A model generated the notes under the pieces. That model did not search any database. It saw nothing but the letters and a program-made list of their open reading frames with translations, and was not told where the DNA came from. Source: a virus (lineage: Duplodnaviria; Heunggongvirae; Uroviricota; Caudoviricetes). Taken from it: a stretch of 64,000 nt of DNA. The translations under genes were made by a program, and so were the position numbers. This document shows, piece after piece, positions 3 through 58,550 of this stretch (within the stretch, counting starts at the first letter, position 1; every line of letters starts with the position of its first letter). The stretch spans positions 133,424 through 197,423 of IMG/VR virus record IMGVR_UViG_3300021166_000052. The stretch is one strand, 5' to 3'.

Positions 3-179
3 GATTAGAATGCAGGTTTAATTGAACAAATACCACCTAAATAGGAATAGCAGACATTATCTGATTATGCCAATGGTATTGGTGGAAATTTAAATTGTGT
101 AAAAGATTATTTACAAGTTCCAAGTATATTAGGTGATATACTCATAGATTAGAAGCGCGGTGTATTTATTAAAAGTTAA
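3..179 (+). CDS. 3' end of a TAG-recoded hypothetical protein upstream of the tape measure gene (partial)
   Basis: Frame 3 is open to TAA 177-179 apart from four TAGs: D*NAGLIEQIPPK*E*QTL...LID*KRGVFIKS. Confidence 0.6.
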
Positions 180-216
180 TTAATTTATAATAAATTACAT
201 TAATTGGTATTAACAC

Positions 217-3200
217 ATGGCGACAAATAATCAAAATACTCCCATTACGAATCAACCGATTCTTCCACATGATGATGCAATCGAGAATTTAGATCAATTT
301 AGTTCTCATTTAAATTCTGCTAATAGTGGATTTAATAATTTCATCGGACAAATAGGAAATTTATCTAGTACAATTCGTGGTTTAGATAGATCAATTCTTA
401 ATAATTCCTCATCATTAGGGAGTGGTTTATCTAATTTAGCAAATGCTAGTAGATTAGGTCCAAACCAACAACGTCAAAATATAAGACCAAATTACAATCC
501 TACAACTCCATTTATGCCAGATTTTGGAAATCTATTTCCTACAGATTTTCAACATCCTGCAATGGCAAAAGCATTACAAAGTAATTTCAGATCATCAAGG
601 CCCGATACATTAGGTGGACAAATTGGTCAAAGTTATACCGCAGATGCTAATAAAAATTTATTACAATTAGGTCATACATTAAATCCATTATCATTTATGC
701 AATATTCAATGATGTATGGTGCATCATTCCCAGTGCAGATGAAAATGGCCGAAACTATAACTCGCCCAGTTACAGATGTAAATCAACAATTTGATACAAT
801 GAAATCATTTACTGGTGGATTTACTGGCATTGGTGAAGCTATCAAAGGATTTTCATCTCAAATGAAATCACCATTTCAAATGTATGAAGGTTTATATCAA
901 TCTAAAATAATGTTATCTTCTGCATTAGGGGGTGATAAAGCATCAAATATGGCAGTAACTAATGCTATGAAAATGGCTCGGGAATATCCAGTTAAAACTG
1001 AGCAAGTATTATCATCATTATCTCGATTAGCAGTATACCCAGAAGTTAAACCAAATCTACAAAATTCTGATTTCCAAAAGAAACTAATGGAAACTGTATC
1101 AGGACTATCACTTATTGTACCTGAACAAGGTATGGAAGGTGCAATGTTTTCGTTAGTTGAAGCTATGTCAGGAAATTAGCGTTCTATGCAGATGAGATTT
1201 AATATTTCACCGGAAGTTGTTCAGTCTATGGCTGGAATGACTAAAGGTGAAATGTCATCAGATCCCGCTAAGTTGATTACTGGATTACATTCATTCGTAG
1301 GAAAAGCTGTCGGTCTTGATGTATTAGAAAAACAAAAATTTACATTTTCAAAACAAGTAGATAACTTTGGTGACTCGTTACAATTATTAACTAAAGAGGT
1401 ATTTGAAAAAACAGATTTATATAAATCTATTACAGGTGGAGCAGCAGTATTTCAAACAGGATTTTCATCACTTGCTAATAATAAAGATTTTACTAATTAT
1501 ATAGGTGGTATATTTCAACCATTTCAATCTAAATTTGATGGGGCTTTTGCTAAATTTTCTGGAGTAGGTATTGGTGCATATAAATCTATGCCCATGTCAG
1601 AAGTATTGGCAGCCATGGAAAAAAACTTTTCTAATTTATCAATGGATGATATTGGAGGACGATTTGATGTTCTAATTGGGGAAATTGGTGAAGTTTGGAA
1701 AGATACTACCATGAAACTAGATGATATTATGAATAGTAAAATGGGAAGTGTTCTTGGTAATATAGGTGGAGACATAGCCAGAGTTGCGAGTAATTCATTT
1801 AACGGTGTAGTGTCTGCTGTATTAACTGGAGTTAAGGATTCATTTATGGATAACCCAATGAATATTTTAGCACCAATTGCAATGATGACTGTACCATTAG
1901 GTGTTACATTAGGTGTAGCACAATTACTTCCTACATTAATGAGTAGAGCAATCGAAAATAATTCATTTGGTAAAATGGCAGGTAAAGCTGGTAATTTTAT
2001 GTAGGGAACCAGTAACACCCAAGCTGGTGATATGTTATCATCACAATATAGACAACAACTTAAAAGTGCTGCTAAAAATCATTCATATGGTAGCATGTCA
2101 AATCTACATCAAACTGATAGAATTGCAGGAGAACAATTTACTAAAGTAAAACCTTCTAATTTAAATAAAATGATTAACATCCATGGAACAGAATTAGATA
2201 AAGCTGCTGTATCACTAAGACAGGATATTATGAAGGATGTGGACATATCAATATTACGTGAACATGATAAACGTGCATCTTCTAGTGGATCTCCAAAAGA
2301 AGGCCGATCTACTAAAAGAGTAGTTGATGACACCATCAAACGGGCATATGATCCTGCTAATATGACCAATGCTGAACGCAATATATTAAATGCCCACACT
2401 GAAAAATTAAGAAAAGCTGGATTTAATGATACGCAAATTTCTAAAATGAGTCAGGCAAGAAATTTAGAAGCCGTCCGTATGATCGAAGATGAAAACTTTT
2501 TAGCGGGTAAAGGTAGACAATTATTACCAGAAGATCATATTAAGTTAAAACGTTTAGTTAATGTTCCTCAATATAAATATAGTATGGAACAAAATACTGC
2601 TGATAGAATTAGAAATTTGCAACAACAAGGTAGATTAGCACCGGGTGAATTGCCATTTCAAGCAGGCGATGAAGTTACAGCACGACGTGCTGGGGGATTA
2701 AATTCATATCAGAAAAGATTCAATGGTATTAATGATGATATGAAATTATCACAATTTTATAATGATGTTCAAAATAATAAATTCACACCTAGACAATTAC
2801 AAGAATTTGAAAAAGTATCTGGTGTAAATGTTACAGCTAGAAATGGATTGGGTCAACGTATATTTCAACAAACACATTTAGATGCTTTGAAAACAGAAGC
2901 ATCTGGAGCTAGATCTGCTTATGATGAAGCTAGAGTAATACGAAATGGAATAAGTGATCGTTCTATTAGATATACAAATCCTCAACAAGGTGCAGTAGCA
3001 GAAAGATTTCCATTAGTTAATAGAGTATTACAAATGGAAAATGCTAAGAAACTATTTGCTGATCTTGGAAATTATGATATGAATAAACTAATGGGAGCTA
3101 AAACAGCAAATAGAATGTCCCGTTTAATAAATCAAAATGAAGGAGCGTTAAAAAATTTCACAGTAGATATAACTGATCCTAGTATGGAAAAGGCTATTGG

Positions 3201-6200
3201 AACAAATAAAGTGAATTTAGTCGAAGCTGTTAATACCCCACAATTTCAACAATATCAACGAGGGGGTATCAATGCATTATCAACTATGGATGCATCAGAT
3301 GCCAAAATTGCATTACGTGGTGATGCTGCCCTAAGAACAATAAGTGGTGATAGACAACTATTAAATCAAGTAACAGATGTGATGTCAACTGGTGGAGCTA
3401 GATTTGCTGGCTTATCAAGGATGTCAGAATTTGCATCATCATTAAAAAATACTCCGATATTAAGTGGCGCTGCTAAAGCTGGTGGTTTTGCACTACAAGC
3501 TATTGATCCTATTATAGTAGGTTCACAAGTATATGAAATTGCTAAAGAAAAAGGAATGTCTACTCCTGCATCAGTTACAATGGCGGGGGGTGCTGCCGCT
3601 GCTGTCGGTGGGGGTATTTATGGAACATATAAAAACTTTTTAGGAAAAGCATTTACAAATTTAGCTGTAACACCGGCTACCGCCTCCGCAGCACAAACAG
3701 TTGCCGCAAAAGAAGCAGCAAAAGTAGCACTTCAGGGATCATTAATGAAAGCTGTTGGGTTGGGTGGTGCATTAACAGCATTAACAACAGGTTTAGAAAT
3801 TTATAAATCATCAGTCGCATCAGATAGTGCTATTAAAAAAGATAAAACTAAATATGATTCTGACTTAGAAATGTCATCTGGATTAACTGACACTCAGCGA
3901 AAAAGATTTTCAAAAATAAATAATGAAGTAACTGATACCGAACGGTCAAGTCAGGGAATGAAGTCACTTGCTAATTATGGTGCATTAAAAACAGGACTGA
4001 TTGTTGGTGGTTCATTGTTAGCTGGTTTAGCAACAGGTGGTATTGGTACAATGGCCGGCCTTGCTTTGGCTGGTGGTGGTGCTACATGGGCTGGGACCAG
4101 TTATTTTGGTGGTAGTGGTAAAACATCAGAAAATACTAAAGAAATGCAAAATACAATTAAAGGTGTTACTAATAGTGTTTCGTTCTATGAAAATAAAATA
4201 ACTGATTATGATAAAACCATTTCTACTTTAGAATATGCTAAACAATCAGGCGGTGGATTAACCGCTGCTGAATATTCTAAATTGGGTGACACTAAAGTAC
4301 AACGACAACTAGCATTAACTAATAAAAATTCACAATTGAGTCAAGTAAATACACTTGGTGATATTTATGATAATAAGCAGATACAAGAAACCCCTTAGTT
4401 TTTGAAAGTTGGTGGTGCTGAATCTAGTATTGATATGATAGATACTGAAAATGAACAAAAAAAACAATTAGGTAATACTAAATCATATCAACTTAATTCA
4501 TATTTAAAACAAGATAAACGAATTGCACCCCAATCTGCAATCGGAGATTATTTAGGAATTGCTACATTCGATGTAAGTGCTAAAGATGAACTCAATACTA
4601 AATTAAAAACTGCATCTGATAAGGGAGATAAACAAGAAGTTGGTGCAATATTAGATCGTGATCTTGATAATAATAAAAGAATTTCGAAACGTTTTGATTA
4701 TGCTGTTAATAATGCAGATATAAATAATGCAGACCAAATGGAAATATTACGTTCCTCTGAAGTTAATAGAGTTTCTAATATGGCGGTTCCATTAGGTAAT
4801 AAACAAGATATGGAAACGTTTAAAGGAAAGAATCAAGCATTTTTAGTTGGTGAAGCCATTAAATATAATGTACTTGGTTCTATATCTCCTAATAAAAATT
4901 CTCGTAACTTATATACATCATTAGAAACTGCATATGGTAATAAATTAAGTTCTATTGGTGTATCTAATCCATATGATGTTGTTAAACAAACACAGGATCA
5001 ATTTTTACAAACAGGACAACCTGAAAGAGATAAACTATTTAATACTATGGATTTTAGTTTACAAAATAAACTAAAATCTGCTGGTATAACTAATATGGAT
5101 CAATTAGGATCTATGGATTCAAAAGAAGTTGGGAAAAAACTACGAGCATCTGGATCTTCTATGTAGACGTGGGAAGAAGACGATATTAAAGAAGTTCAAG
5201 GTAAATATAATTCATCTAAAGGAGATGCTAAAGCACAATATAATGATATTCAAAATACAGCAGTGAGATCATTGTTTGGTGCTGTAGGTGGTGCTAGTGG
5301 TGTAAAAGCTACAGATGAATTAACTAAAAATCAAAAATTATATGAAGGTGTAAGTTTATCAAATTTATCACAAAACGAACAAGCTAATGTTGGTATACAA
5401 TTAAATCGACGCAGAGAAGCAATTGATTCCATTAAACAAACTGGTGGTAAAGATTTTGATGCACTTGTACAATCAGTATTTAAAGGAAAAGAAACTACTG
5501 AAAGTGTGTTGAAAGATGATGCCAAATTAACTCAATTACGTGAATCTGGTGAATATAAAGAAGTTAAATTTGATAATATTAGGAATGCGATGGATTCTGT
5601 TGCAGTAACATCGGTTGCCATGGACGCCGCAATGAATACCACTAAAGAAACAGTTGAGAAACGGTTTAATAATGCTCTTGAAAAAGCAAGTGATGCAGTG
5701 ACTAATTTTCAAGCTGGTGGTATCGAACCCGGTAAATTTGCACAAACAACCGGCCCATTATTTGAAGAAATGAAAAATTCTATTGGTTCATTAAAAAATA
5801 GTGGTATTTTAAAACAAAATATAGCCGGTCAAGATTTTAATACACTAATGAAAAATAATAAATCATTTGAAAATGTTGCAACATCATTAGGTATTACGTC
5901 AGCAGAAGGATTAACTCAACGAGATTCAAATGGATTAACTGGTTTGACACGTATTATGCAATCTGGTTTATCTGATACAGCTACAATGGTTAAATTGAGT
6001 GAGATATCTGGTGGTTATACAACAGGACAAAAGCAAATTAGTGAAGCTGGTGCATTAGGAATGGAAGCAGCTAAAAAAACAGGAGCATTATCATTTAAAG
6101 CATCAGCATCTGGATCAGAAGAATTTGATATTGCTACTCAACAAACTACATTTGATTTTAAAAATAGAAAAAAATTACGTGATGCAAATATGCAGGAAAT

Positions 6201-7857
6201 GAAATATTATGCATCAGCTTATGTAAATGCTCAAACACCAGAAGAAGCAAAAACAGCTCTTACTGCATATGAAATGGCTTCTCAACAAGGTAGTAAATTA
6301 GGAAATAATGAGTTAATGAAGAAGTATGGTATTGGTGCTGATTATAATAAATTAACGGATAAGGTAACTAACGCAGCGGTGGGACATACATTAAGTATAC
6401 CAACACAACTAGCAATTACTGGAGGCGTTCCACAAATACCAACTGCTATTAGTGATGATCCAGCTAAAGAAAAATTAAAAGAAACACTACAAGCAAAATA
6501 GAAAGAAGCAGGAACACAAATATCATCTCCACCAGAATCTATACAATCAGGTGGTGTAATATCAAAAATGTTACCAACTTCAATAACACCAATACCACAA
6601 GGTGAAACTATTGGATCAACTGGTAATATACCAACAATATTACCGGCTACTAAGAAAACAAAACCTGATGTATATGATGATAAAGTTGTTGATATTACTC
6701 CTTTTAATGTAAAAACTCCAGTTGGTGATAGTAGTAATAAACTACCAAATACACCAACAGGTGCATTTTCTGAAATAGGAAGTTGGGTCGATAAAGATAA
6801 TCAAAAACATTCAATTCATTCAAGTGAATTACAAAATACATCTGGTGGTCCTAGTATGACTAGAACCCCATGGAAAGATAAATTCGGAAGTGAATATAAA
6901 GAAGTTAATGGATCGTTTGTACCAGTATCAGAAAATAAATTTCCAGATAGTGGATATTTATCAAATGATGCAATTGGTAATCCAACCAACACAGTACCAT
7001 TGCCATTACGTAATTCTAAGTTAACACAGTTACCTAGCATGAATACTTAGAATAAAAATATAATTTCTGAAGAACAAAAACCAGAAGAAGGTGTTCCTAC
7101 CATAACACCAACTATGAAAAAAATTGATCCTAATATATATGAAGATAATGCTGCAAATTTATATCCATCTAGTGTTAAAACACCAATGACATCTAAACAA
7201 GATCAGAATGCAGCAGAACTACAAGAAAGAGTTCCCGGCCTGATAGGAAATGCTAGTGATTGGGTTGCTGGTAAAGTTGGAGGATTATTAGGGGGGGAAA
7301 ATCAATCACCTGATATACAAGCTAAAGTAATCCCTAATTTAGACGAGACACAGTTACAACCTATTGATATTCAAGGGAATGTAAAAGTTAATCAATCTAA
7401 TATGGACACTATACAAACTGATGTTATGTCAAATTTACCAGAAACAGGGAACCCTTATGCGGCTTTTGCTGATATAGCTCCGATATCACAACCACAATCA
7501 CCTGTTGGAAGTAATATTATAAATACTTTAGGTGATATGACACAACCTGATTTTAATGTTACTGGTATGAAATCTTTTACAGATGCAATTAATAAACAAA
7601 CATCTGCTATAACAGAAACTGTACCATCCGCTCAAAGTAATTTATTTAGCGCGGGTATAACAAGCGAAGCAACGTCGCAAGTAACACGGCCAGACGTGGC
7701 TACAACTTCACTTGCACCGTACTTTGATACTGGGAGTGGCGCGGTCGGAAGTCAAGCAGCAGCGGCCAATTTAGCGGCATTAGAGGCCCTAACCAACCAA
7801 GGCCCAGCGTTGGCCCCAGCGAGAGAAGATTTATTAAATTTTAACATCGGAGCATAA
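217..7857 (+). CDS. Tail tape measure protein, 2546 aa when six in-frame TAG codons are read through
   Basis: Seven ORF-track pieces (217, 1186, 2032, 4402, 5263, 6568, 7114) share one frame, are separated only by TAG, and end at TAA 7855-7857. Ala/Gly/Ser-rich helical composition; tape-measure-like segment AMKMAREYP...GAMFSLVEAMSGN*RSMQMRFNI; hydrophobic Gly/Ala stretches. Confidence 0.85.
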
Positions 7858-34310: not shown

Positions 34311-34342
34311 ATAGTATTTCCTTCTTTTTATTTATAAATTAA

Positions 34343-35527
34343 TTATAATTCTACAACTTCACTATAACCACTAAATTCAACAAGAAATTCGTTCATGGTA
34401 TTATTATCCATTGTTGCGTATTTTGATATATCATTATTATGTTTAGAACATGAATGATTATGTTGATTTATTTTTACATGGCGTAATCCGTTATAATTTC
34501 TAAAATTAACTACAGAGTTGTATACCATATCATCATAGATAAAAGAATCATTTGTATAAATATATCTGGGTGGGGGAACATTTTGTCTTATTATATAATA
34601 ATCTTCGTTTTCAATAATAACAGTCGAGTCATTATCTAGTAATATATTATTATAATTATTTATATTAGTATCAAGTAGTATAAATGAGTTAATATGTTGA
34701 TAAATGTTTATATTTTCTTCATCATCAACTATAGTAGTATCCTCTATTACATAATCTGTTTTTAAAACATCCCATGTAATATCGGTACTAGGTGGTCTAT
34801 TAGAAGAGGTCGGATCATATATAAATGAATTAGTAGGTCTGACACCAACTAAACTATTATCAAAAATAATTGAGCATTTGACATTTTTATTTAAATTAGG
34901 GAGGCCAATTTGATTTAGTGTCATTAAATCAAACGGTTGATTATATTCATAATTAGTTGTATCTGCTAAAGTTTTCTATACATTAGTAGCGAAATTAAAT
35001 AATTCAAATTGATACCGTATAGATTCAATTGGGAATATTACATATTCATTATATGTTGCATAATATGTTTTACAGGCCCCATAAAAATCCAATTTAATAA
35101 AATCTGTATGGGTAATAGTTGTGTCAGTATATGGTAATGAAAATGTGATAGTTGTTTGATCTAATGGTAGTTTGATTGCAATTGAATGAGTGGTTGGGTC
35201 ATCATCTTGATTCAGTATATATAAATTATCAAGTTTATATGGAGTATAATCAACTAACGTTGTACTGGATGAACTATTAGGTTTTGTAAAAATATAATCA
35301 TTTTTTTGTTTAAAAACTATTTGATGTGTTTCACCTTTCAGTTTTAAATCCATGTCGAAATATGCAGATACATTATCATATTCTATAGGCTCTGTACTAG
35401 GCCCATAATAAGTTTCGGGTTGACCCATATTAGCTTTAACTGATAATATATTAGTAGGGGTAGAAACACTTTTAATAGAATCCTACGTCAATTGTTTAAT
35501 TATTTCATTTAACGTTAAATTTTTCAT
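34343..35527 (-). CDS. Hypothetical structural protein, 394 aa (2 TAG)
   Basis: ATG 35527 lies immediately after the upstream TAA; in-frame pieces are joined through TAG. Confidence 0.7.
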
Positions 35528-35528
35528 A

Positions 35529-38500
35529 TTAACACCAAAACCCAGATTTTTTTGTTATTATATTTTCAACTTTATTTACAGTAATTTTTTTATTACCAAA
35601 CCACGATTTACAGTAATTTACTATGTCGGTTATTTTAACAAAATTATCAACAGTTTCGAACTCGACTGAAAGGATATCATTTATATACACAGACACGGTT
35701 CCATATTTTTTTATAAATTTTAAATTTATCGCACTTCTACTAATATTATAAATATATGATCCAGTGTCCATATATTTATAATTCCACTTTCCAACATCAG
35801 CTTTACCATTTTTTCGTTTTTCAGTGAATATTTGAGTTAGAATATCATGTCTATGTTCTTGAAAATATGAAATTTCATTTGATGATAATTGATAATCAAA
35901 ATCAATTAAATGATTGAATTTACAATTCGCGGTATATTGTTCTAATTCATAAAAATTTCCATAATCATTGATAGTTGGTGTCATATATATAACGCTGGTT
36001 TTTCGTGACATATAATCAGTATTATGTACTTTAGGTTCATTCATAGGATATGTAAATATAACGGGCTGGCCACCCCCTGCATCAAATTCTGTTCTCGATG
36101 ATACTACATCCAACCCAGTGGTTTCTGTTCCATCCTAATAAGTTTTTTCCATGCTAGTGGTTGTAGCATCCGTATATTTATTAAATATATAAAATAGTTG
36201 ATGATTATTAGCAGTTCCATATGGATCATATGATGTTTTATCTTCTTCAAAAAATCTCTAAACATCATAACCATTGCAATTTTGAATATTAAATAATGCC
36301 ACCCCGTCATTTGATGTAGGCGGTCTAACTGATAAACCAGTATAGCAATAATCATCAACTACTGTAAGCATCGCACAATAATTTAAACCATATCGAGCCA
36401 TATACATACCATATTGATCATCCCACCAAACATCACGAATATCTACCGAGTATGACATTGGTAAATCGCATACAAATGTATGACTTTCTCTAGTAGCAGG
36501 CTATATTTCTAATGATTCATTGGTTGTGTAATTATCATTAGAAGTATATCTAATGATGTTATATGCATGGCACGGTACATTATTAGCGTCAGCATGATTA
36601 AATGGATATTGACTTCTCTAACGCGGTAAAAAGTAATAATTAGAATTTTGTTCCATTAAATTATAGAATGTGTTCGCACTACCAATGCCGTAAAAGTTAT
36701 GCTGAGTTTCACCATCAGGATAATCATACTAGGTTGAAATCTATGATTTACATTTATGGGGTAAATTTCCTAATGTATAGAAATTTTTAATAGCGGTCAA
36801 ATACAATGAATACACATTGTTTGTTTTACCAGTAATATCAATATGTGAAATATAATAATAATCAGATGTTTTAATATGAACATCTATAAAATCATAATCA
36901 GTTATGCTACTGAATACATTTATATTATTTATATTTGGGCTGATGGTTGAATCTGTTAAAGATATATTGATATTAACTAATTCATCATTTCCAATTGTCA
37001 AATCTGTTAATATGAGTTCAGTATTATATGATGTAGCATCATCTAATGTAGATGTTATTAGTATTTCTGTACCATCTGTTATAGCGTTTGTGTTGGTAAA
37101 ATCTATAGTGTTTGATATTTGAAGATTTGTGACTGATACTATTTCATTTTTAGAATAATCCAATTCAGCACTAGTTAAATCAGTTACTATATATTGTACA
37201 TGTGTCAACGCATTATATTTTGTATCACTTAAATACTCAGTGTCAACCGTGCAAACAATTTTAAATGTATTTGCAGTATCAACATTTAGATTATATAATT
37301 TATAATTTACTGAAGTTGTATCTATAATTAAACCATCTTCATCTATGAAATAATCAATTTTGAAATTAGAAATTTGATTAGTGTGGTCGGTCGCTGTGTT
37401 TATAGTATCAATCACTGATATCATATTATAATCAATAGTGAATTGAGTATTTTCATTATATACTGCATTTAGTTTTTTATTAATGCTATTTTGTATAGCT
37501 ACGATACCATCTATATAGTTAACATTATTATCAGTAAAATCACTAAATGTGATTTCATCATATTTAAAATTAGTATCTAATATATCTATAAAATTATTCT
37601 TTAATTCAGTAAGTGAGTTAAATGTATAACCATTCTATGTGATATAATATTTATTATTAGAATTTAAAAATTTAATAAATTTATTATTTTTTATTAAACT
37701 ATTGATTTCATTTAAATTTACATTAAATTCAAATGAAAATCTATCCCAATTTAAATCATATTCAACTGGATCGATTTTTATAACTATTTCATTTGATGAA
37801 TCATATGAAATATTTTTTAAACCACCATTAATATCTCCTATATTATTGGTTATATGTAATATATATGGATCTTCTGTCAATTCTCTAAATGAAATAAATG
37901 ATTGTAATTTATAATATGAGCTATTTGCACTCTCTGATATTAAAATCGCATCACTATCTTCGATTATAACATTACTAGGATTATCAATTCTTAAAATAGA
38001 ATTTTCGTTTTTATTAACATAATATCCAGTGGTTTCTGTGTTATCACTAATTGTTTTTAAATAAGTGTCATTTGTTGTTATATCCGATGTTATAATTAGT
38101 GATTTACGGGGAATAATAATAAATCCATCAAATTCATAATATAGAGGTTGTGGCATGGGTAATAAATTTACATACGTAGAGGTGTACTATATATACTATG
38201 GAGTATCAACACTGGACCCATATAATTCTCGTCCTCGTTGATACTCCCTATCATCTATGATGGTAGTTGTATAATTATCAGTTGTTCCTTGTCTATATTG
38301 CTCTAGTTCAGAAAATATATAATTACCAACTTTTATAATTCTGGTATAGTTTTTTAATTTACCATTTTTATAAGTTATTAAATTTTCTATTTGTTTTAGA
38401 TTGTAGAAAACACCAGTATCCTAACTTAAATTACATTCATATAAAATATAATCTTTAACAATTTGAAAAATGTTATCAGTTACCTATTGTATAGATGTTA

Positions 38501-39359
38501 CTCCAAATTTTTGATAGGTGGTACATACTCCATTATTATGTATATCTAATTTCATATTATAATCGCCAACATAATCACAATATGGAATCGCTATATAATT
38601 TTGATCAGTTGGGTGTAATATAAAGTGATCAAAAATTTCAGAACTATAACGCTTTGTTATAACAATAGAATTTATAAAATTATCAGTGCTATAACAAAAT
38701 GCATTGGAACTAGTGTAATCTTTCTAAAAATAATTACTATCAAATGAATGAGTTCCGTTCATATCATCTGCCATAGCATAATACTATACAAATTTTATAT
38801 CAACGTGGTCTACACTATTTTGCATATATCCATTATGAGGCCATTTATATTTTTTATTTAACTATACATTACTAACATTATTCTGTGTATATTCAATCTC
38901 TGCTCTAAAAATATTTTTAAAATTATATGATCTTATATAACTACTATTAGTAGTTATACCCGTAACACCTACCACATTTATTCCATCTAAAATTAAATTT
39001 TGTTTAGTTTCCAAATTTATTGGGAAATATATATAACCATTAGCATGTACAATATCAACGAAATTTAATTTATTATCTTCAATCAAAAATACAATGAACG
39101 ATGGGTTGGTTGCATAAAAGGCCATTTGAAGATTTGATAAAAATGGTTTCATGAAACCTGCTAATTGTGAATCAACAGTGAACCCTAGACGACAGTGAAT
39201 TAACATCTAATATTTATTATTAACTGTATTATAATGAGGATTGTTTTCGTTGTATATAGTAGGGACCATTAGTAAACTAGTGGTTTTTTCAAAAACTTGT
39301 TCTTGGGTAAAATTGGTAAAGTCGGTTATATTTTTCAATTTAGATACATGAGGGATCAT
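35529..39359 (-). CDS. Large structural protein, 1276 aa (multiple TAG)
   Basis: Five ORF pieces in one frame from ATG 39359 to TAA 35529; gaps contain only TAG. Confidence 0.7.
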
Positions 39360-43396: not shown

Positions 43397-46384
43397 TCAT
43401 TTACCTTTGGTGGCCCTGTGTTCAATTAACATTGAATCTATGGCATCATGTGTCAACCCGAAGATATTTGAATTAGGGAGGCTAATATGCACCTTCAGAG
43501 TGGCCCTTGTAATTGCAACATAGAATAGATTAAATTCCTCAATGACTTTCTGGATACCAGTGGCGCTAACACCGCTTTTATCTTTTATTTGCCTTTGAAA
43601 ATCTTCCATGGTTTTAGCTACAAAAGAAATGCGCTGGATCAAATCAGGAAAATCATCATTAATAAACACTTCATCCCATTCTAAACCTTTACATGTATGC
43701 GCCGTTGTTAATAAAATGTCGCATTTTTTCTTACGGCGGTTGGCTTTAGCTTGTTCATATATAGCAATTAAATTTTCCCAATATTCGTCAACGATACGTA
43801 GTGATGTTAGCATCTCAATATCATTTGACTCTTGAGCATATTCAAGAATATCATTTCGACCCCGGAAGTTGAATAACCATTTAACTTCAATTTTACTTTT
43901 ATTTTTATTTCTATCACTTAAAAAATAAAATAATGACAGGGGTAATCTAAAAATATCATCGGGATTACGGACTGTTTTAACAACTTTACCATCTGCTGTA
44001 AAGTTTGAAAAGAGACTAATTACTCCTGCATTAGTCCGGGTGATATGACAGATACTTTTAACTTCACCAGTTTTATTAGGGAAATGTGAAATAATAGATT
44101 CTGGTTCACCTAAAATATTATTTAAAATATAATTGGCCTTTTGGGCAATTTCATCATTAAACCTGAATGTTCTGGATAAATATAACTGATCATGGGCGTT
44201 AATAAATTTATCCATTGCATTAACAGTTCCCCTAAATCCATAAATTTGTTGCCATTTATCACCTACAATAATTTTGGTTCCCCCTAACGAATTAAAAATA
44301 TCCAATGTGATACTATTTGTATCTTGGCAATTATGAACAATTATACCAGTTGAATCATATGATAGGGATGTAATAAAATTATGATTATCTTCAACTTCAA
44401 TATCATAAACATCCTCATTTCCAATGTATTCAATAGATTTAATATAATCACCATTGTGATTTTTAGGATCATCTAAAATCATCATATCTTGACCAATTAT
44501 AATATCACTTATTTTAACATATCCTCGTTGGGTGAGAATAATTTCATTCGATGTACATTTTAGTTTATTCAACCCTTCTGATTGAACTAAAAAGATTTCC
44601 CTATTCTCACTTTTTTTAGACCATATGATTGGTTTATATTCATATTCATTAGTTTCAATATTAAAACTTTTAGCTAATGGTAAAGTTTCTTTATTTATAA
44701 ATTTTTTATACAACGATTTTATTTTTACTTTACCATTGTCAGTATGAACATAATGATTCCCGATTAAACATTCATCTAAAAGAACATAGTTATAGTTAAT
44801 TTTTTCTTTAAGTCTATCAATGGCTAAATGAAAATATTTTAAATAAAATGAATGTACAACATCTAATTTTTTATTATAAATATCATTCCACATACCCAGC
44901 ACACCATTAATAATCATTTTCAATGATGGGTTTTTTTGATGCATAATAATTGATAATTCTTCATTTTCATCAATCAAATCATTAATAACTTTTTCATTGA
45001 TATCTTTATATGCGGAATTACAAAACGCATCAAATAATCTAATTATCATCAATGCTACATTATAATCTGAAATATTAAAATGTTGTTTGATCTCGACAAC
45101 TTTATAGTTTTGTCTGACATTATAAATATTTAATTCATCTCTGGTATATGCATATGCCAACCCATTAATAGTGCTAACTTTAGTATTATCCCCAAACCGT
45201 TTTTTAGCTTCCTCGGCCATTGCTTTATTAAAAACTAAATATAAAAATGTTTTATCGGGACAAGTTTTGGTTAATTTTTCTAATGTAGTAGTGTTATGAG
45301 TGACTATATAGTCTTTAGTTATATATAATCCATCAGCATTATTAACTGATATACATCTACTATTTTCCTCACCAATATTACTTACATTAACTATTCTTTT
45401 ATATTTTTTAGAATTTATATAAATTCTATATGATAATTCACCTGTTAATGATTTATCTTTATATTTATATATTGGTCGTCTGGTTTTATATGTAACATAA
45501 TATCCTAAACTCCGGGATAATTCAATGAAATCAAAAGCCAGCTTTGATGAACTTGTAGAATATTCAATATGAGATGAACTTGATTTATGACCATCAGTAT
45601 CAACCAATCCTTGATATAACTCATTTCTAATATCTAATGAATTGTAAAGATATTCTCGTGGTATATGTTTATTGATTGATAACTCACCGTATAGATTATA
45701 GTCAATCAGTGCTTTTTTTAAATTTGATGTTTTATACTTTATTTTATTTTGAATATAATACTCATTAGTTGTATTTGCGATAGGATTTAAATAATCACCA
45801 GTGTATGACAATAATTGGTTGATTTTTTCAATTACGGTAGCATTGCTATTAGTTAATCGAATATTGCCATTTGTAAATCCACCATCACCTAACAACACAC
45901 CCAATAGATATGGATGAATTTTAACTTCTGATCCATTAAATTCAACTCCATCCGTTAGCGGGATTGCGAAATTATAGCGAGTATATTGTTTATTGGTCCG
46001 TTTGTCTAAAATTTTACGACTGATACCCTTGGTAATAATATCATGTAGTGATAAAACTTCCAATTTATTAGAATGTTCATTAAAAACTTTCCAAAGATGA
46101 TCAATTCCACATCTTGTATATGTACCATCGGCAAATTCAATTTTGTAAATGGGTTTAATTCCTTGTTCGAAAATACCAGATAAAGTAGCCGGTTTTCCAG
46201 TTTGTGTCATAACTAATGAATCAATGGTTAAATCTCCCATAGTTACCCATCCAGTAGGGGTAAGCACCGGCTCGCTATAAGGTTGATCTTTACCAGTACC
46301 TGCAAACGCATTTACCCGTAAATATGAACTTTTTTTATTTTTAGCGATATCAATAATATTGGATTGCTGCTCAGTATCTTTCAT
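43397..46384 (-). CDS. UvrD-like superfamily 1 helicase containing two inteins
   Basis: AFAGTGK|T Walker A, LLDE|CQD Walker B, VGDKWQQIYGFRG, LSRTFRF, TAHTCKGLEWD and FYVAITRA motifs; no in-frame TAG. Confidence 0.92.
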   Translation of the reverse strand: MKDTEQQSNIIDIAKNKKSSYLRVNAFAGTGKDQPYSEPVLTPTGWVTMGDLTIDSLVMTQTGKPATLSGIFEQGIKPIYKIEFADGTYTRCGIDHLWKVFNEHSNKLEVLSLHDIITKGISRKILDKRTNKQYTRYNFAIPLTDGVEFNGSEVKIHPYLLGVLLGDGGFTNGNIRLTNSNATVIEKINQLLSYTGDYLNPIANTTNEYYIQNKIKYKTSNLKKALIDYNLYGELSINKHIPREYLYNSLDIRNELYQGLVDTDGHKSSSSHIEYSTSSSKLAFDFIELSRSLGYYVTYKTRRPIYKYKDKSLTGELSYRIYINSKKYKRIVNVSNIGEENSRCISVNNADGLYITKDYIVTHNTTTLEKLTKTCPDKTFLYLVFNKAMAEEAKKRFGDNTKVSTINGLAYAYTRDELNIYNVRQNYKVVEIKQHFNISDYNVALMIIRLFDAFCNSAYKDINEKVINDLIDENEELSIIMHQKNPSLKMIINGVLGMWNDIYNKKLDVVHSFYLKYFHLAIDRLKEKINYNYVLLDECLIGNHYVHTDNGKVKIKSLYKKFINKETLPLAKSFNIETNEYEYKPIIWSKKSENREIFLVQSEGLNKLKCTSNEIILTQRGYVKISDIIIGQDMMILDDPKNHNGDYIKSIEYIGNEDVYDIEVEDNHNFITSLSYDSTGIIVHNCQDTNSITLDIFNSLGGTKIIVGDKWQQIYGFRGTVNAMDKFINAHDQLYLSRTFRFNDEIAQKANYILNNILGEPESIISHFPNKTGEVKSICHITRTNAGVISLFSNFTADGKVVKTVRNPDDIFRLPLSLFYFLSDRNKNKSKIEVKWLFNFRGRNDILEYAQESNDIEMLTSLRIVDEYWENLIAIYEQAKANRRKKKCDILLTTAHTCKGLEWDEVFINDDFPDLIQRISFVAKTMEDFQRQIKDKSGVSATGIQKVIEEFNLFYVAITRATLKVHISLPNSNIFGLTHDAIDSMLIEHRATKGK
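44330..44770 (-). mobile_element. Mini-intein (147 aa) in Walker B
   Basis: Starts CLIGNHYV and ends VYDIEVEDNHNF...IIVHN/C; no endonuclease domain. Confidence 0.85.
45293..46288 (-). mobile_element. Class 3-type intein with LAGLIDADG homing endonuclease (332 aa) in Walker A
   Basis: Starts DQPYSEPVLTPTGW and ends IVTHN/T. W-C-T triad (DHLW, SRCISV, VTHN); LLGVLLGDGG and QGLVDTDG motifs. Confidence 0.85.
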
Positions 46385-46983: not shown

Positions 46984-47160
46984 TATATTATATAAAATAA
47001 AAAATAAATTTTTTATTTTATATAATATAAATAGTATCGTTTCACGATACTATTTTATATAATATCATATTTTTTATTTTTTGTAAAATAAAAAATAAAT
47101 AGTATCGTGAAACGATACTATTTTATATAATATCATAAAAATTTATTTTTATGATATTAT
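46984..47160. repeat. Cluster of four inverted repeats, including two copies of a 23-bp palindrome
   Basis: 21-bp perfect inverted repeat (46984-47004/47009-47029); ATAGTATCGT-NNN-ACGATACTAT at 47031-47053 and 47099-47121; 16-bp inverted repeat (47127-47142/47145-47160). Confidence 0.85.
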
Positions 47161-48233
47161 GTCATAAATTTTTCTTTTCTATAACCAACATCTTTAGTGG
47201 TACGTGCCGTACCACTAATTATTTTATTTTTTATTAATAATATTCGTTCTTTAAATGCATCAGATTCTTTTTTTCCGATATTTGTTTCTATTAAAGAAAC
47301 TATATTATTAAACGAATCTCCGTTAATAAATTTTTTAATATTATCAACCATTTGGTCCGTAAATTTGACATTTTTCATAGCATTGTCAAATTTTTCTTGG
47401 TTATGATAATCCATAAATTGATATATTGAGTTCGATGATGGGAAAGTAAACCCGTGATCAAACGCTAACATTTCGGAATTACCATCTTTTTTTATTTTAT
47501 GTAAAAAATTACCACCATGTCGGTCTGCGTTCCCAATTATAAAATCAAATAGAGCTTTGTCACCTGCTTCTTTATCGGTTTTGGCAATAGCTTCAAACGC
47601 GGCATCGCCTGTAGTTAATTCATATTTACTAATTTGATTAATATCATCGCCTTTATGTTTTTCTATTAAATTTTCTGAAATAGATCCAAATGTACCATTT
47701 ATATCTTTTATATTTGTCTCTGGTAAATGATTCATTCCTAATTCTTTTGCAATTGCATAAGTTGCTACTTCTCTATCTATCATGTGACCCTTAACTTCAC
47801 CTCTACCTGAGTTAGTTTTATTCTGGTATATGATATGATCTTCTAATGATAGTTTTTCATTATTTTTATTATTTAAATGATAGCTATTAAAATTTAAATT
47901 AGGTTGGTCCTATGGTGATGATATTTTTCTAACAAATGGCTCTCCGGTGACAGGTTTAAAATAACCAGTACTACCATCTTTGAATTTAATAAATTGAACC
48001 CCATTTGAAATTCCACCTTCATTAGCATCAAGTGGTTTAGATGATTCAATATCTTTATCATTTATAGATTTTTTTGTATGTTTTATGTTTTTATTATCAA
48101 CATTAACTCTCATTTGCTTATCATATGATTTACGAAAATGTGTACCATCTTTACTTTGTACAACAGTTCCTTTTACATTAATATTTTTGAGTTGTTTATG
48201 TTTTTCTTGAACAGGTTTCATTATAACGTCCAA
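47157..48233 (-). CDS. PI3/PI4-kinase-like (atypical kinase) protein, 358 aa (1 TAG)
   Basis: GGI Gly-loop, YFKP, REVATY, FDFIIGNADRHGGN and AFDHGFTFP motifs; two ORF pieces in frame joined at TAG 47910-47912. Confidence 0.8.
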
Positions 48234-49303
48234 CCATGTTTTCTAAAGTTCATATCACTTAAACTTGTTTTTTTATTTTTAAATATTTGTTCTGCAAAAT
48301 AACCAACTCGTTCTTTAAATGATTCTGCTTCTTTTGTTCCAATATTTTCGTTTACATATCTATGGAATTGTTCAAAGTCACCACTTGTAAGAAATTTACC
48401 AAAATTTTCAATAAAATCTGGAGTAAATTCTTTTTTACCAGCACCCATTAGAAAATCATATTGATTACCAAAATCATAACTTGCGTAATTTCTATTACTG
48501 TTTGGAAATGATAATCCTTGATCAAATGCTAACATTTCAGCTTTATTTTTACCATCGGTTTTCACCATCTAATTACCACGGTGTCTATCAGTATTACCGA
48601 TTAATAAATCGAAAGCTAATTTATCTCCAATTTTAGGATCATAATCAGCTATAGAATCAAAGTCATTATATTTATAATCAGCATGTTTAGCTTTAGTGAT
48701 GGTATATCCCGGTTCTTTAAACTGATCATGTATATTTCTGATCATAATACCCAATTTTTTTTCACCATCGATTTCTAACCGCCGTACCGATGCTTCTGGT
48801 AAATGGTCCATACCAAGAGCTTGCCCCAGTGTGAACGTGGCAACTTCACGGTCTAGCATGTGGCCTTTAACTTTAGCCCTACCGTGATCCTTTTCTTGTT
48901 TTAAATCACGATATGCATCCCTGTCGTTGATGGTGTCGCCGGTCTTTTTGTCATTTAAACGGATAGTATCTCGAATGAACCCGCCCAGTGTGAACGGTTC
49001 ACTATCGATATCTTTAAAGAATCCGGTAGTGGTCTGCCCTTCGGGGGTTTTAATTTCGATAACCTTAACACCGGGAGTGATACCACCCTCACCAATTTTT
49101 AAATCACTTATAGATTGAACTTCCCCGGCCCGCATGGTATTATTCAACTTGGAGGTTATCCATGGATGTTTCGTAGGTTGTTGATTTACCATTTGATTTC
49201 TCTGATGTTGCTTACGGAAATATGCACCATCTTGGTCGTTCACAACTGTGCCCTTCACATCAACTAGTTTTTTATGTTTTGAATTAGTTTTATTACTTTT
49301 CAT
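48221..49303 (-). CDS. PI3/PI4-kinase-like protein, paralog, 360 aa (1 TAG)
   Basis: FFKD, REVATF, FDLLIGNTDRHRGN*MV and AFDQGLSFP; the TAG at 48569-48571 lies between the catalytic loop and the Mg-binding motif. Confidence 0.8.
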
Positions 49304-50795: not shown

Positions 50796-51344
50796 ATGAA
50801 TAATTTAAAACAAGTTATCGTGATGCGGAAAGATCTGAATATGCGAAAAGGAAAAATTGCAGCGCAATCAGGTCACGCTGTCATGAAGACAGCTTTTTCT
50901 GCAATGAATCATGTACATTTTGATTTTAATGATAATATCAATGGATCATCTTCAATTATTAATAAATTACGAGTTGGTATTTTTAATGGATTAACCAAAT
51001 TGGCATTCAAAATAATAGGATGTAAACTGGATGTAAATTTGACAACGTGGTATTATTTATTCAATTCTGATTCGAATATAGGACAATGGTTATCTGGTAT
51101 TTTTACTAAAATATGTGTCAGCGTTAATTCAGAAAAAGAATTATATGATATATATACAGCAGTTGAAAATTATAACGCATTACAAAACCAAAAAAAAGGT
51201 GATCCTGATTATTTGGCATGTGAAATTATAATTGATTCTGGTTTAACTGAATTTAATGGTAAAAAAACTATGACATGTTTGGCAATAGGACCGGGGCCAT
51301 CTGATATCATTAATATGTTCACTGGGGATTTACCCTTATTATAA
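50796..51344 (+). CDS. pth2: Peptidyl-tRNA hydrolase, Pth2 family
   Basis: KQVIVMRKDLNMRKGKIAAQSGHA, KICVSV, IIDSGLTEF, TCLAIGP and TGDLPLL. Confidence 0.9.
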   Translation: MNNLKQVIVMRKDLNMRKGKIAAQSGHAVMKTAFSAMNHVHFDFNDNINGSSSIINKLRVGIFNGLTKLAFKIIGCKLDVNLTTWYYLFNSDSNIGQWLSGIFTKICVSVNSEKELYDIYTAVENYNALQNQKKGDPDYLACEIIIDSGLTEFNGKKTMTCLAIGPGPSDIINMFTGDLPLL

Positions 51345-52128: not shown

Positions 52129-52752
52129 ATGAAATGTAAAAAATGTAATAAAGATCACGATGGTTCATATGGGTCGGGTGTGTTCTGTACACAAAAGTGT
52201 TCACGATCATATTCTACCAGCAAGGATAATAATAATGTTTTAAAAGAATCTAAGTGTGTTATATGTGAAAAAGATATTGTTGTAAAAAAACGATCAAGTA
52301 ATCATAAATGTGTTGATTGTAAAAAAACAAATAGGTCAACAATTCATAAAAATATATTTGAAAATAAGTGTGATTTTTGTGGAAAAGAAATATCACCGTC
52401 ATCACAAAAAAAATCATTTTGTGACCATAATTGTTAGCATGAATATAAATATTTATTGTATATTAACAAATAGTTATTAAAATTAGAAACAGGATATCGA
52501 GGAAATCTCGGAACATCTAATTACATTAAAAAGTATTTAATATAGTTACATGGTAATAAGTGCATCAAATGTGGTTAGTCAAAAAGTAATCCGGTTACAT
52601 TAACGACACCAATTCATTTACACCACATGGACGGAGATTTTAAAAATAATGATATTACTAATTTAGAATTATTATGTCCATGTTGCCATAGTATTACTCC
52701 TAATTTTGGGAGTCTAAATAATGGCAAAAGTACTAGAATTTTTAATAAATAA
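52129..52752 (+). CDS. Zn-finger HNH endonuclease, 207 aa (4 TAG)
   Basis: Several CxxC pairs, then KCIKCG*S...HLHHMDGDFKNNDITNLELLCPCCHS. The HNH core lies entirely downstream of four TAGs. Confidence 0.85.
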
Positions 52753-55167: not shown

Positions 55168-55275
55168 ATAAAATTACCCTTTTATATATATTAATAAAAA
55201 ACCTTGTGATATGTAATGATATGTATTATATTTTGTATAATCGACCCTATAAATAGTTTAAATAGAGATGAAAAT

Positions 55276-57432
55276 ATGAAAAATTATAAGTATTATCCAG
55301 TAGATGCATTTTATTCGTATAAAGATAAGAAGTTATTTTATATAGTTAAGCAAGTGGACGAAGCTGGTAAAGTTACTAAGATGGCCAATTTTAAATTGGA
55401 CCCAGAAATTGAGATTAAACTTGCACCTTTTACTAAAAAAATCAAGTATTTGGAGCATATACCACCGGATGTTAAAAAACTGAAAGTTAAGTATAGTCAA
55501 TATTCTAAAATGAAAAAGGCATTGATGGGGGTTTTTGAAGGTAAAAACGATGCCGCTAAGAATTTTATGAATAAATATCCTACTATCATGACTCTTAAAG
55601 AGGATATTTATGATGATTATAAAATGGAAACTCAGTTTTTACAACAGGATATTTTTTTATATGATGATGACTATATAAATAATATTGTGATAGGCATTTG
55701 GGATATTGAGGTTTATCACGATGATAAAGAATTCCCATCCCCCGAATATGCTAAATATCCAGTTAATGCAATATCATATTATAATTTAAGTGATGATAAA
55801 ATTAGTATTTTTGTTTTACGAAATAATAGTAATCATAAAGAACCAGATGCACTTAGACAAGATATTTTAACAAAACTTCATAAAGAATATGGCACACTAT
55901 ATCAATTCGAAATTTTTATATTTGAAACCGAGGTATCATTATTATCAGACTATTTAAAATTTATATCTAATGTAGATGTATTGGTAGGTTGGAATAGTAT
56001 TGATTTCGATACATTATATGTGTGTAATAGATGTAAAAAGCTAAACATATCAACTGCATTTGAAGAATCATTTGGTGAAATGTATGAAACTATGAATATT
56101 GTTGATAGTAAACAGGGCGTTGAATCATTCACACATTATACTACTAAAATCTTATCATTAGACTATGTACATTTAATTAAATTTTATAGTTTAACTAATT
56201 ATCCATCATATGCTTTAAATCGGATGGCGGCTAAATTATTATCATCTGATGATGTTATTTCCGCTAAAGTTGAGATTCCAAACTTAAATTTTGAATACCT
56301 TCAAGATCCAGCAAATTTTATAAATTATAATGTAGGTGATATTTTATTAAATAAATTTATTGATGATAAATTACTATTTATTAAATTATTATTTAAACAA
56401 AAAATGATGACACGTGGATTCGGTGCATCAACCTTATCAGTTAATAATATTCTTGATAGTTATATTGCATTAAAGTGTAAAGAAGAAAATTTAATGTGTA
56501 TTTCTGCGGCTAAAGTGACCACATATTATACTAAAAAAGTATGGGCAATTTATCGAAGAATAAATTTATTACATCAAGAACGGCTGGATTTAATTACTGC
56601 ATTACGGGAAAATAATAAAACATTTACATTATTTAGTAATGTTGAAGATTTAGATAATCATAGATATGATATAATTTCAGAATTTACTGAAGAGGATTTA
56701 GAAGATAAACAACATGTAAAATTAACAAAGGCCCAAATTCCTTTTATATGGGACGCTGCAAAATATCCGGGGGCATATGTAAAGATACCTCGTAAAGGTA
56801 TATATTTAAATGTAGTAGACTTGGACGCGACTGGGATGTATCCCACATCCATATACACAACAAATAATAGTGCTGATACATGGATATATCTAATTCCAGA
56901 AAATATTGCTCTTAAATATATTTATGAACGTGATGATTTAATACAATATATTAGTTCCAATGAAAATTTTTATATGGAAGTATATGATGTAGTTAATGAT
57001 GTGTTTAAAAAATTTATACATACAGATGCTATCACATTATTAGAAACAATATATAAAAAGGACTTGGTTTTGGTTGAAACGGGTGCTGTTTTTATCCCTG
57101 CTCACATTAAGGAAGGGTTTTTCAGAAAGCTAATTAAATATCCAATTTCAGAACGAAAGAAAGTTAAAAAGCAGATGAAGGTATTAGCGGAAACAAGAGG
57201 ATTAACGAAAGATCACCCTGATATAAAGAATTTAGATATTACACAAACAGTATTAAAAATTATCGCCAACTCAGTTTATGGTTATCTGGGATTCAGGAAA
57301 AGCCGATTATTTAATATTATTTTAGCTAGTTCGATCACCGTAAATTGCCAGTTTATGATTCGGTATGTCGCATATAATTGTGAAACTATTATGAAGAAAA
57401 ATGTTGACAAGCATAATGAAAGTATTGTATAA
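55276..57432 (+). CDS. Family B DNA polymerase, N-terminal part (exonuclease plus motifs A and B, no motif C)
   Basis: ExoI WDIE, ExoII GWNSIDFD, ExoIII YNVGD, motif A DLDATGMYPT, motif B KIIANSVYG; ends at TAA without YGDTDS. An alternative upstream ATG exists at 55216. Confidence 0.88.
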   Translation: MKNYKYYPVDAFYSYKDKKLFYIVKQVDEAGKVTKMANFKLDPEIEIKLAPFTKKIKYLEHIPPDVKKLKVKYSQYSKMKKALMGVFEGKNDAAKNFMNKYPTIMTLKEDIYDDYKMETQFLQQDIFLYDDDYINNIVIGIWDIEVYHDDKEFPSPEYAKYPVNAISYYNLSDDKISIFVLRNNSNHKEPDALRQDILTKLHKEYGTLYQFEIFIFETEVSLLSDYLKFISNVDVLVGWNSIDFDTLYVCNRCKKLNISTAFEESFGEMYETMNIVDSKQGVESFTHYTTKILSLDYVHLIKFYSLTNYPSYALNRMAAKLLSSDDVISAKVEIPNLNFEYLQDPANFINYNVGDILLNKFIDDKLLFIKLLFKQKMMTRGFGASTLSVNNILDSYIALKCKEENLMCISAAKVTTYYTKKVWAIYRRINLLHQERLDLITALRENNKTFTLFSNVEDLDNHRYDIISEFTEEDLEDKQHVKLTKAQIPFIWDAAKYPGAYVKIPRKGIYLNVVDLDATGMYPTSIYTTNNSADTWIYLIPENIALKYIYERDDLIQYISSNENFYMEVYDVVNDVFKKFIHTDAITLLETIYKKDLVLVETGAVFIPAHIKEGFFRKLIKYPISERKKVKKQMKVLAETRGLTKDHPDIKNLDITQTVLKIIANSVYGYLGFRKSRLFNIILASSITVNCQFMIRYVAYNCETIMKKNVDKHNESIV

Positions 57433-57433: not shown

Positions 57434-57457
57434 AAATATGATATATATAATACAACT

Positions 57458-57532
57458 GCCTAATTACTTCAGCGGTAGAAGGACCGGCTCATATCCGGTT
57501 AGTCAGTAGTTCGAATCTACTATTAGGCACCA
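57458..57532 (+). tRNA. tRNA with CAU anticodon (elongator Met or Ile2)
   Basis: GCCTAAT/ATTAGGC acceptor, ACCGG-CTCATAT-CCGGT, AGTAG-TTCGAAT-CTACT, ACCA end. Confidence 0.9.
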
Positions 57533-57550
57533 CTTTTAATTAGTAAGAGG

Positions 57551-58120
57551 TTGATAATGATTTTTTTCGTCGGGCTTGGAAGAGGTGATATTGAATTATA
57601 TGATAATCAAACAGTCTCTAATGGGTTGGAATATATAAGGCAGATTATTGAAGATTTTAATTTACCGAAAGATATAAATCTTCAAAAGATTGGGATTGAA
57701 ACTAGTTGTAGATATGAAAAACGGGTGGATATTAATTTATGTCAAGTTAGAACAATTATTGATAATCAAATTGTCCATCATGATATGACACATATATTAT
57801 CGGATGATAAATTAAATACTAAAGATTATTTTAAATTAAGTAATACAACTCAAGTAATGCTCCGCCCCGGTTTATTATCTAAATATATTAGACCGTTTGT
57901 GGTTATTCGTAAAGTTGATAGATTCAGTATATTTAATTATATATGGAAACGAAATAACAATTCAAAATCATTGTCAAATAAACAAATCGAGTCTGTAACG
58001 GTTTATTATGATACAGATTTTGTAGCATTTATTAATGATTGGAAAAATGCTGGATATCCTTTATATTTTGGAATTACTGAAGATGAATATAATCAGATTA
58101 AAAAAAAAGACCACGATTAA
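57551..58120 (+). CDS. Hypothetical protein
   Basis: GAGG SD; intact ORF. Confidence 0.7.
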   Translation: MIMIFFVGLGRGDIELYDNQTVSNGLEYIRQIIEDFNLPKDINLQKIGIETSCRYEKRVDINLCQVRTIIDNQIVHHDMTHILSDDKLNTKDYFKLSNTTQVMLRPGLLSKYIRPFVVIRKVDRFSIFNYIWKRNNNSKSLSNKQIESVTVYYDTDFVAFINDWKNAGYPLYFGITEDEYNQIKKKDHD

Positions 58121-58138
58121 ATAAATAAATTAATATAT

Positions 58139-58212
58139 TGCGGGATAGAGAAAATGGTATCTCACCACTCTCATAAGGTGGAATCTTGGCCGTTCGATCC
58201 GGCCTCCCGCTA
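58139..58212 (+). tRNA. tRNA-Met(CAU) with an initiator-like 1:72 mismatch and no encoded CCA
   Basis: TGCGGGA/TCCCGCT acceptor, GAGA/TCTC D stem, CCACT-CTCATAA-GGTGG, GGCCG-TTCGATC-CGGCC. Confidence 0.88.
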
Positions 58213-58213
58213 C

Positions 58214-58286
58214 GGTTTACATGTCAATTACTTCCACGTAGTGTAAACTGGTAACGGTTATTAAATAACCGGCTAAAAATTGACGT
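58214..58286 (+). ncRNA. HDV-like (theta-type) self-cleaving ribozyme at the tRNA 3' end
   Basis: P1 GGTTTAC/GTAAACT with a G1-U wobble; P2 GTCAATT/AATTGAC; P3 ACT/AGT; L3 TCCACGT; P1.1 CC/GG; P4 CGGTTAT/ATAACCG; J4/2 GCTAAA. Confidence 0.88.
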
Positions 58287-58301
58287 TGATAAGTATACAC
58301 C

Positions 58302-58550
58302 ATGGGTTATATTACATTGAATAATGGTAAAATGTTACGAAGTACAAAACGTTTTGGACGATGTGGATTGTGTCAAGGGAACCATGAAGGTCATGGTGAA
58401 TGTGAAGTAACACATGAAATTCAATCTGTTGCAATAACACGAACTGAAGATAAACGTAAAAGTAGAAAAGAAATTATCGATCAATTAAATGATCAAGTTG
58501 AAGAATATGAAGGAAATGGGTAGCTTTATGATCAAGATTATATTAAATAA
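58302..58550 (+). CDS. Small Cys/His protein, 82 aa if TAG 58521-58523 is read through
   Basis: CGLC..H..H..C motif; continues G*LYDQDYIK to TAA. Confidence 0.55.

Follow-up and report, generated by a model that had tools for sequence, protein, structure and literature searches.

We analyzed a 64,000-nucleotide stretch of DNA, referred to below as the window, which covers positions 133424-197423 of contig C1, the 276,095-base virus record of a tailed phage (IMGVR_UViG_3300021166_000052; designated G000). In-frame TAG codons were found at tryptophan (Trp) positions of the phage genes, and they are, with high probability, read as Trp. Judging from sequence comparison, this is very likely a form of stop-codon recoding in which TAG would probably be decoded by a phage tRNA with the anticodon CUA, tRNA(CUA), charged by the divergent tryptophanyl-tRNA synthetase (TrpRS) of the phage.

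In-frame TAG codons in the window

The guanine-cytosine (GC) content was 28% in the window and 29.5% in the whole genome. Under table 11, open reading frames of at least 100 amino acids covered 0.640 of the window; coverage was 0.933 with TAG as a sense codon, 0.664 with TGA as sense and 0.758 with TAA as sense. Frames of at least 300 amino acids numbered 6 under table 11, compared with 22, 9 and 11 under the TAG, TGA and TAA alternatives, respectively. Genome-wide, coverage increased from 0.688 to 0.875 with TAG as sense and to 0.733 with TGA as sense. Thus, coding density was highest with TAG as sense in both the window and the genome, and the original prediction that genes here are broken by TAG, and not by TAA or TGA, was borne out. 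All ten TAG contexts quoted in that prediction were located, those on the minus strand with an offset of two bases that reflects a codon-end convention.

Between positions 217 and 43347, 21 of the 23 long genes contained in-frame TAG, and after read-through the genes tiled as had been described: the gaps between them ranged from -32 to 83 bases, with a single exception of 254 bases that contained a small TAG-bearing frame. The TAG-bearing features of the window are:

3-179, plus strand: 3' part of a 577-amino-acid gene that starts upstream of the window, with four in-frame TAG codons in this part (translation of the frame)
217-7857, plus strand: gene of 2546 amino acids with six TAG and six TGG codons, putatively the tape measure gene (a label given without a PHROG match)
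7870-43347, both strands: 22 long, close-packed genes, 20 of them with in-frame TAG and most with orthologs in a related phage (G001, see below)
47157-49303, minus strand: two tandem PI3/PI4-kinase-like paralogs with one TAG each; the TAG at 48569-48571 lies in the motif DRHRGNx (x, TAG)
52129-52752, plus strand: HNH endonuclease with four TAG codons

A scan of 13 window proteins (the 2546-amino-acid protein and 12 from the block at 7870-43347) returned no named PHROG, and the tape measure, LamG and chaperone labels of the original prediction are putative; based on their position and size, the genes of this block are probably virion genes. TAG was also present within recognizable late genes outside the window, namely those for terminase (10 codons), the major capsid protein (1) and transglycosylase (6). 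Overall, 24 of the 45 window genes of at least 100 amino acids contained TAG, with 148 TAG and 65 TGG in 14,778 codons. In these genes TGG alone accounted for 0.44% of codons and TAG plus TGG for 1.44%, compared with 0.97% TGG in the TAG-free window genes. The equal numbers of TAG and TGG in the putative tape measure gene agreed with the original count.

Gene calling presumed TAG read-through, and hence stop-codon counts cannot show that TAG never serves as a stop. Among 110 table-11 frames ending in TAG, read-through would bring four into conflict with the gene that follows, and the frame at C1 16762-17103 resembles a gene with a true TAG stop. The use of TAG as a stop appears to be rare at most.

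Residues and codons facing TAG

Homologs from outside the phage lineage pointed to Trp. The four TAG columns of the papain-like protease, including that of the NSWG motif, were occupied by Trp in 118, 116, 120 and 120 of 120 homologs. We calculated column likelihoods for 20 TAG columns from three families (papain-like protease, transglycosylase and terminase, with 120, 120 and 150 homologs, respectively), and the summed log-odds were +40.2 for Trp, -14.1 for tyrosine (Tyr), -18.2 for phenylalanine (Phe) and -19.2 for glutamine (Gln). As a control, the standard meaning was recovered for 46 of 46 codons with at least five columns. The terminases of two related phage records, G001 and G002, which were reached via the synthetase described below, agreed with this result (G001, four columns, Trp +10.5, controls 30/33; G002, nine columns, Trp +21.0, controls 31/32). 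For the HNH endonuclease of the window, 10 of its 47 matches were compared, all of them from phages, and codons 115 and 150 faced Trp in 10 of 10. The claim that TAG falls at Trp-like sites held for these two of the four TAGs in this gene; the kinase-like example, in which the paralog carries Phe, does not distinguish Trp from Phe. In RCC1-like repeats with the motif GSLTxWK, the same position was encoded by TGG, TGG and TAG.

Codon exchange with the two relatives was examined at the DNA level, in well-aligned columns of TAG-bearing genes with G001 and G002 pooled. Both relatives gained coverage with TAG as sense (G001, 232,818 bases with direct terminal repeats, from 0.728 to 0.901; G002, 180,374 bases, from 0.654 to 0.891). 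TAG stood opposite 43 of 97 TGG codons (44%), 24 of 1458 Tyr codons (1.6%), 12 of 1209 Phe codons and 1 of 636 Gln codons. Counted from the other side, the partners at 209 TAG columns were TAG in 86, Tyr in 47, TGG in 27, Phe in 9 and Gln in 1, so that the dominance of Gln that a homolog-column check might have revealed was absent at this level. The profile likelihood was best for Trp, with Tyr at -164 and Gln at -634 (-63 and -227, respectively, for window genes only). Individual genes displayed the same exchange: the major capsid proteins (69% identical) showed a reciprocal TAG/TGG swap at two sites, and one TAG of the 2546-amino-acid gene lay opposite TGG in G002 (SGNxRSMQ and SGSWRSMQ; x, TAG). 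In a metagenome contig of 10.7 kb that carries the synthetase, the six aligned TAGs faced three TGG, two Tyr and one TAG. Taken together, three independent lines of evidence (homolog columns, TAG/TGG exchange with two relatives and internal repeats) were all best fitted by Trp, the meaning originally proposed.

A more distant phage, G004 (126,535 bp, 36.6% GC), shared 26 of its 134 genes and was also TAG-recoded, its coverage increasing from 0.813 to 0.938. It had a tRNA(CUA) at 69063-69139 and a more canonical TrpRS at 37499-38725, and its single informative TAG column showed Trp in 2 of 3. Four adjacent genes of G004 (31729-35501) contained 24-29 Trp each.

Putative decoding machinery and timing

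The original prediction had expected a tRNA(CUA), a TrpRS-like enzyme and release factor 2 (RF2), and all three were found in the genome, upstream of the window:

C1 75287-76282, plus strand: class Ic TrpRS-like synthetase
C1 111431-112543, plus strand: RF2 gene with SPF and GGQ motifs (TIGR00020)
C1 112953-113043, plus strand: tRNA(CUA), predicted by ARAGORN, with a cloverleaf

RF2 scored 357.5 bits against TIGR00020 and 221 against prfA. The tRNA lies approximately 410 bases downstream of it and the synthetase approximately 35 kb away, which indicates that they do not form one operon. An RF2 match was also found in G001. Each of G001 and G002 had the synthetase and one tRNA(CUA) (ARAGORN), short-armed in both; the tRNA(CUA) of G000 has a long variable arm, a feature typical of bacterial tRNA-Tyr.

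The structure model of the synthetase (predicted local distance difference test score, 89) had Thermotoga maritima TrpRS 2g36 as its top fold match (Z 25.5, root-mean-square deviation (rmsd) 3.1, 294 residues aligned), and the first tyrosyl-tRNA synthetase (TyrRS) appeared at rank 42 (Z 21.6, rmsd 2.9, 264 aligned). The T. maritima enzyme was also the best sequence match, sharing GxRPTG, HxGH, YPxLQxxD, DQ, KMSKS and the four-cysteine C-terminal motif, but the phage enzyme is only about 20% identical to it and falls in a long-branched clade of its own. The phage enzyme had 19 close homologs (42-56% identity). When profiles were built from 41 cellular TrpRS and 42 TyrRS references (identity checked for six of each), the TrpRS profile outscored the TyrRS profile in 22 of 22 phage-type synthetases. 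The family had the TrpRS state at R8, A44, H47, Q96, V147, V159 and V161 and at the four C-terminal cysteines; the TyrRS motifs GxDPT and GGxDQ were absent, GxRPT and VFVxxDQ being found instead. No relative of the synthetase was detected in 50,697 GenBank phage records. The family is itself nearly free of Trp: 17 of 20 proteins (P0001-P0020) and the G001 copy had none, and only 7 of 83 cellular TrpRS and TyrRS were Trp-free. Synthesis of a Trp-poor enzyme could proceed during a shortage of charged Trp-tRNA.

All three tRNA(CUA) had C1:G72 and U73. According to the accessible text of PMC2965240, E. coli tRNA-Trp relies on G73, and its amber (CUA) variant receives Gln from glutaminyl-tRNA synthetase (GlnRS). 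Therefore, phage tRNAs with U73 would likely need another synthetase, and a dedicated one would be needed for TAG to be read as Trp. We considered C1:G72/U73 as a Trp signature and rejected it, since both are also present on the crAss-like contig L078, whose TAGs face CAA and CAG; its tRNA(CUA) (2649-2739) is 91 nucleotides long and long-armed. The underlying pattern scan was modelled on the three known tRNAs and hence selects U73, and 34 of its 41 matches were not tRNA(CUA). Identical tRNA(CUA) with C1:G72/U73 were located on three viral fragments (L056 6227-6300, L063 9971-10044 and L076 601-674), where nearby genes gained little from TAG as sense; these may be cases of a suppressor acquired before recoding. 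A weak tRNA-Trp(CCA) prediction at C1 6884-6955, obtained with relaxed settings, was discarded as it had no Rfam support.

The distribution of TAG among genes suggested a role in timing. The TAG-free set included the polymerase, helicases, ligase, RecA, ribonucleotide reductase, TrpRS, RF2, the CCA enzyme and a Pth2-type hydrolase, and a Pfam scan of 60 of the 87 TAG-bearing proteins identified no replication or translation enzymes. A Fisher test of the corresponding counts (281 TAG and 145 TGG in virion genes, 0 and 92 in replication genes) is circular, the second set having been picked from TAG-free genes. Early genes (replication enzymes, synthetase and RF2) without TAG could therefore be translated in the standard code of the host. 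Their products would supply Trp-tRNA(CUA), which would outcompete host release factor 1 (RF1) at UAG, and the additional RF2 would support termination at UAA and UGA. Packaging, capsid, lysis and putative tail genes, which are rich in TAG, would then become translatable. Such an arrangement would fit the gating of late genes that Borges et al. (10.1101/2021.08.26.457843, accessible text) proposed. The spread of TAG is probably explained by the AT-richness of the genome and by the fact that, after the code change, TGG-to-TAG mutations are silent.

Alternative readings and relation to known codes

Several observations weigh against the reading of TAG as Trp. Trp was the leading residue in only 10 of the 20 TAG columns, the others being led by Phe (2), lysine (2), leucine (2), Gln (1), Tyr (1) and glutamate (1), with one tie. 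The tRNA(CUA) of G000 had no Rfam match at E 0.1 and a fold z of only -1.5, and no release factor match was found in G002. The synthetase was TyrRS-like at F145 and N168, scored under every NCBIfam cut-off (58.7 of 176.75 bits for trpS, TIGR00233; 44.1 of 113.8 for tyrS, TIGR00234), and its clade was placed on a long branch roughly halfway between the TrpRS and TyrRS families, in a tree built with FastTree only and with long-branch warnings. Because of these scores and this branch, we infer Trp specificity mainly from the codon evidence.

The intermediate position of this branch would suit a reading of TAG as Tyr, or ambiguously as Trp and Tyr, via a synthetase between the two families. This reading would also account for the long variable arm in G000, for Tyr at position 4 in 17 of 21 members of the synthetase family, and for the fact that Tyr and Trp were partners of TAG about equally often (71 and 70 of 236 columns); Tyr was opposite TAG in 47 of 209 columns and opposite TGG in 14 of 97. 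However, the rate per site was far lower for Tyr codons than for TGG, no TAG column was invariant for Tyr, the tRNAs of both relatives were short-armed, and the fold and profile of the synthetase favored TrpRS. The excess of Tyr partners can be attributed to TAG being one base from TAT and TAC. We consider this reading very unlikely, though slightly less so than the remaining ones.

Reading as Gln through host GlnRS, the table 15 code of crAss-like and Lak phages, is highly improbable. It is the meaning given to TAG in phages in the literature examined, and Gln occupies TAG columns in the nearest homologs from the databases (transglycosylases P0143-5 at 4 of 6, terminases P0263 and P0271 at 4 of 9). 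In addition, codon 103 of the HNH endonuclease faced Gln in 6 of 10 homologs and codon 139 faced glutamate in 8 of 10, which we regard as ordinary replacements since CAG and GAG each differ from TAG by a single base. However, Gln had negative summed log-odds, a Gln codon was almost never opposite TAG in the relatives, and this reading would place Gln at four near-invariant Trp sites of the papain-like protease. Furthermore, the database Gln was confined to the closest matches: at near-invariant Trp columns, all eight Gln in the transglycosylase set were in the top 3 of 120 matches, and all four in the terminase set were in the matches ranked 1, 7 and 9 of 150. A column that is TGG in this phage carried such Gln as well. 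Thus, Gln in the nearest homologs, which are protein records, probably results from machine translation of recoded relatives with table 15. Four terminase matches start at or within two residues of position 388, right behind the TAG at 384, as expected of table-11 fragments from such relatives. A scan for the DNA behind the Gln-bearing terminases found none, and scans of viral contigs with the terminase and the HNH endonuclease gave distant matches or none.

A modified Trp or another indole amino acid, picked by the divergent synthetase, is similarly improbable. Some residues that hardly vary among cellular TrpRS are indeed replaced in the enzyme (D by E45, P by F160 and H by N168), and sequence comparison does not distinguish Trp from a derivative; however, TAG and TGG replace each other freely at individual sites, and no modifying pathway was present among the Pfam matches. 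Finally, an origin of the TAGs from assembly errors, or from nonsense mutations in genes undergoing decay, has no observation in its favor and is hardly credible, as genes break at TAG and not at TAA or TGA, 235 TAGs in 46 genes fall inside homolog alignments, and the pattern is common to three independent assemblies, with 85 of 219 aligned TAG sites also TAG in G002.

With TAG read as Trp, the phage would differ from all phage codes in the sources examined. Within their accessible text, Borges et al. reported two recodings in phages and no others, namely of TAG to Gln and of TGA to Trp, and TAG was taken as Gln by Cook et al. (PMC11210395) and by a 2026 jumbo-phage survey; one phage was left as 'TAG to X' by Al-Shayeb et al. 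(PMC7162821). In a screen of phage suppressor tRNAs, 28 of 29 tRNA(CUA) gave Gln and one gave alanine, and TrpRS partners were described only for UCA (AP1/HF2 TrpRS:tRNA-UCA pairs; PMC12636597, accessible text). Our search of the accessible literature found no phage with TAG as Trp; the claim of a previously undescribed phage code thus stands within that literature.

The phage resembles table 15 phages (crAss-like, Lak and Agate) in its TAG-containing structural and lysis genes, low GC content and phage tRNA(CUA), as well as in RF2, found in some of those genomes, and in code-change genes written in the standard code, but it differs in the meaning of TAG and in the TrpRS-like enzyme. TGA-recoded Jade phages (Borges et al., accessible text) likewise combine a phage TrpRS, a suppressor tRNA and a release factor for the remaining stops. 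They are a mirror image, with UGA, UCA and RF1 in place of UAG, CUA and RF2; here, moreover, the synthetase is remote from the tRNA and RF2. The codon table itself, with TAG and TGG both Trp, is that of NCBI table 32, known from the AT-rich plastid genomes of Balanophoraceae (Balanophora and Thonningia; PMC10268348, accessible text). In contrast with an organelle that has one fixed code, this virus probably imposes its code on a host in the course of infection and keeps its early genes TAG-free. Thus, the phage appears to work like a code-change module that carries the table 32 code, and not like a table 15 phage.

On the whole, it seems likely that this AT-rich jumbo-phage lineage has a full natural amber-to-Trp system, consisting of a tRNA(CUA) ignored by host synthetases, a TrpRS remodelled to accept its CUA anticodon, and RF2. 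Such a system would provide the first viral code with TAG as Trp and the first natural TrpRS:tRNA(CUA) pair, with late-gene gating, hidden in databases by translation with Gln. The lineage would have escaped the host-GlnRS default by means of a phage-borne synthetase, and the switching of a host's code by a virus is directly testable with three genes. Annotation pipelines in the literature examined use tables 15 and 4 for recoded phages, and current tools, with Gln as the TAG default, likely mistranslate this phage. If the Trp reading is true, some share of 'code 15' phages would be mistranslated at their most conserved aromatic sites, of which the Gln-bearing homologs show signs. Beyond this, such a TrpRS:tRNA(CUA) pair would be a candidate for the orthogonal systems that are sought for expanding the genetic code (PMC12636597).

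Two larger TAG-free genes lie in the 3' part of the window:

43397-46384, minus strand: UvrD-like helicase with a homing-endonuclease domain, no TAG and eight TGG, readable in either code
55216-57432, plus strand: family B DNA polymerase, no TAG and five TGG

The helicase gene contains a LAGLIDADG domain and two apparent intein insertions. The Pth2-type peptidyl-tRNA hydrolase (window 50796-51344) has a central insertion, and it could help to remove peptidyl-tRNA when ribosomes stall at UAG. Neither the major capsid protein nor the one kinase-like paralog queried had a relative in the 50,697 GenBank phage records. The two kinase-like proteins of the window and a third paralog (C1 109959-111068) have a basic N-terminal stretch in common. 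Elsewhere in the genome, a TnpB/Cas12f-like gene (C1 88433-89854) with six TAG codons is kept in G001. The first bases of C1 are repeated at position 67 and near its end, which suggests a repeat at a circular junction.

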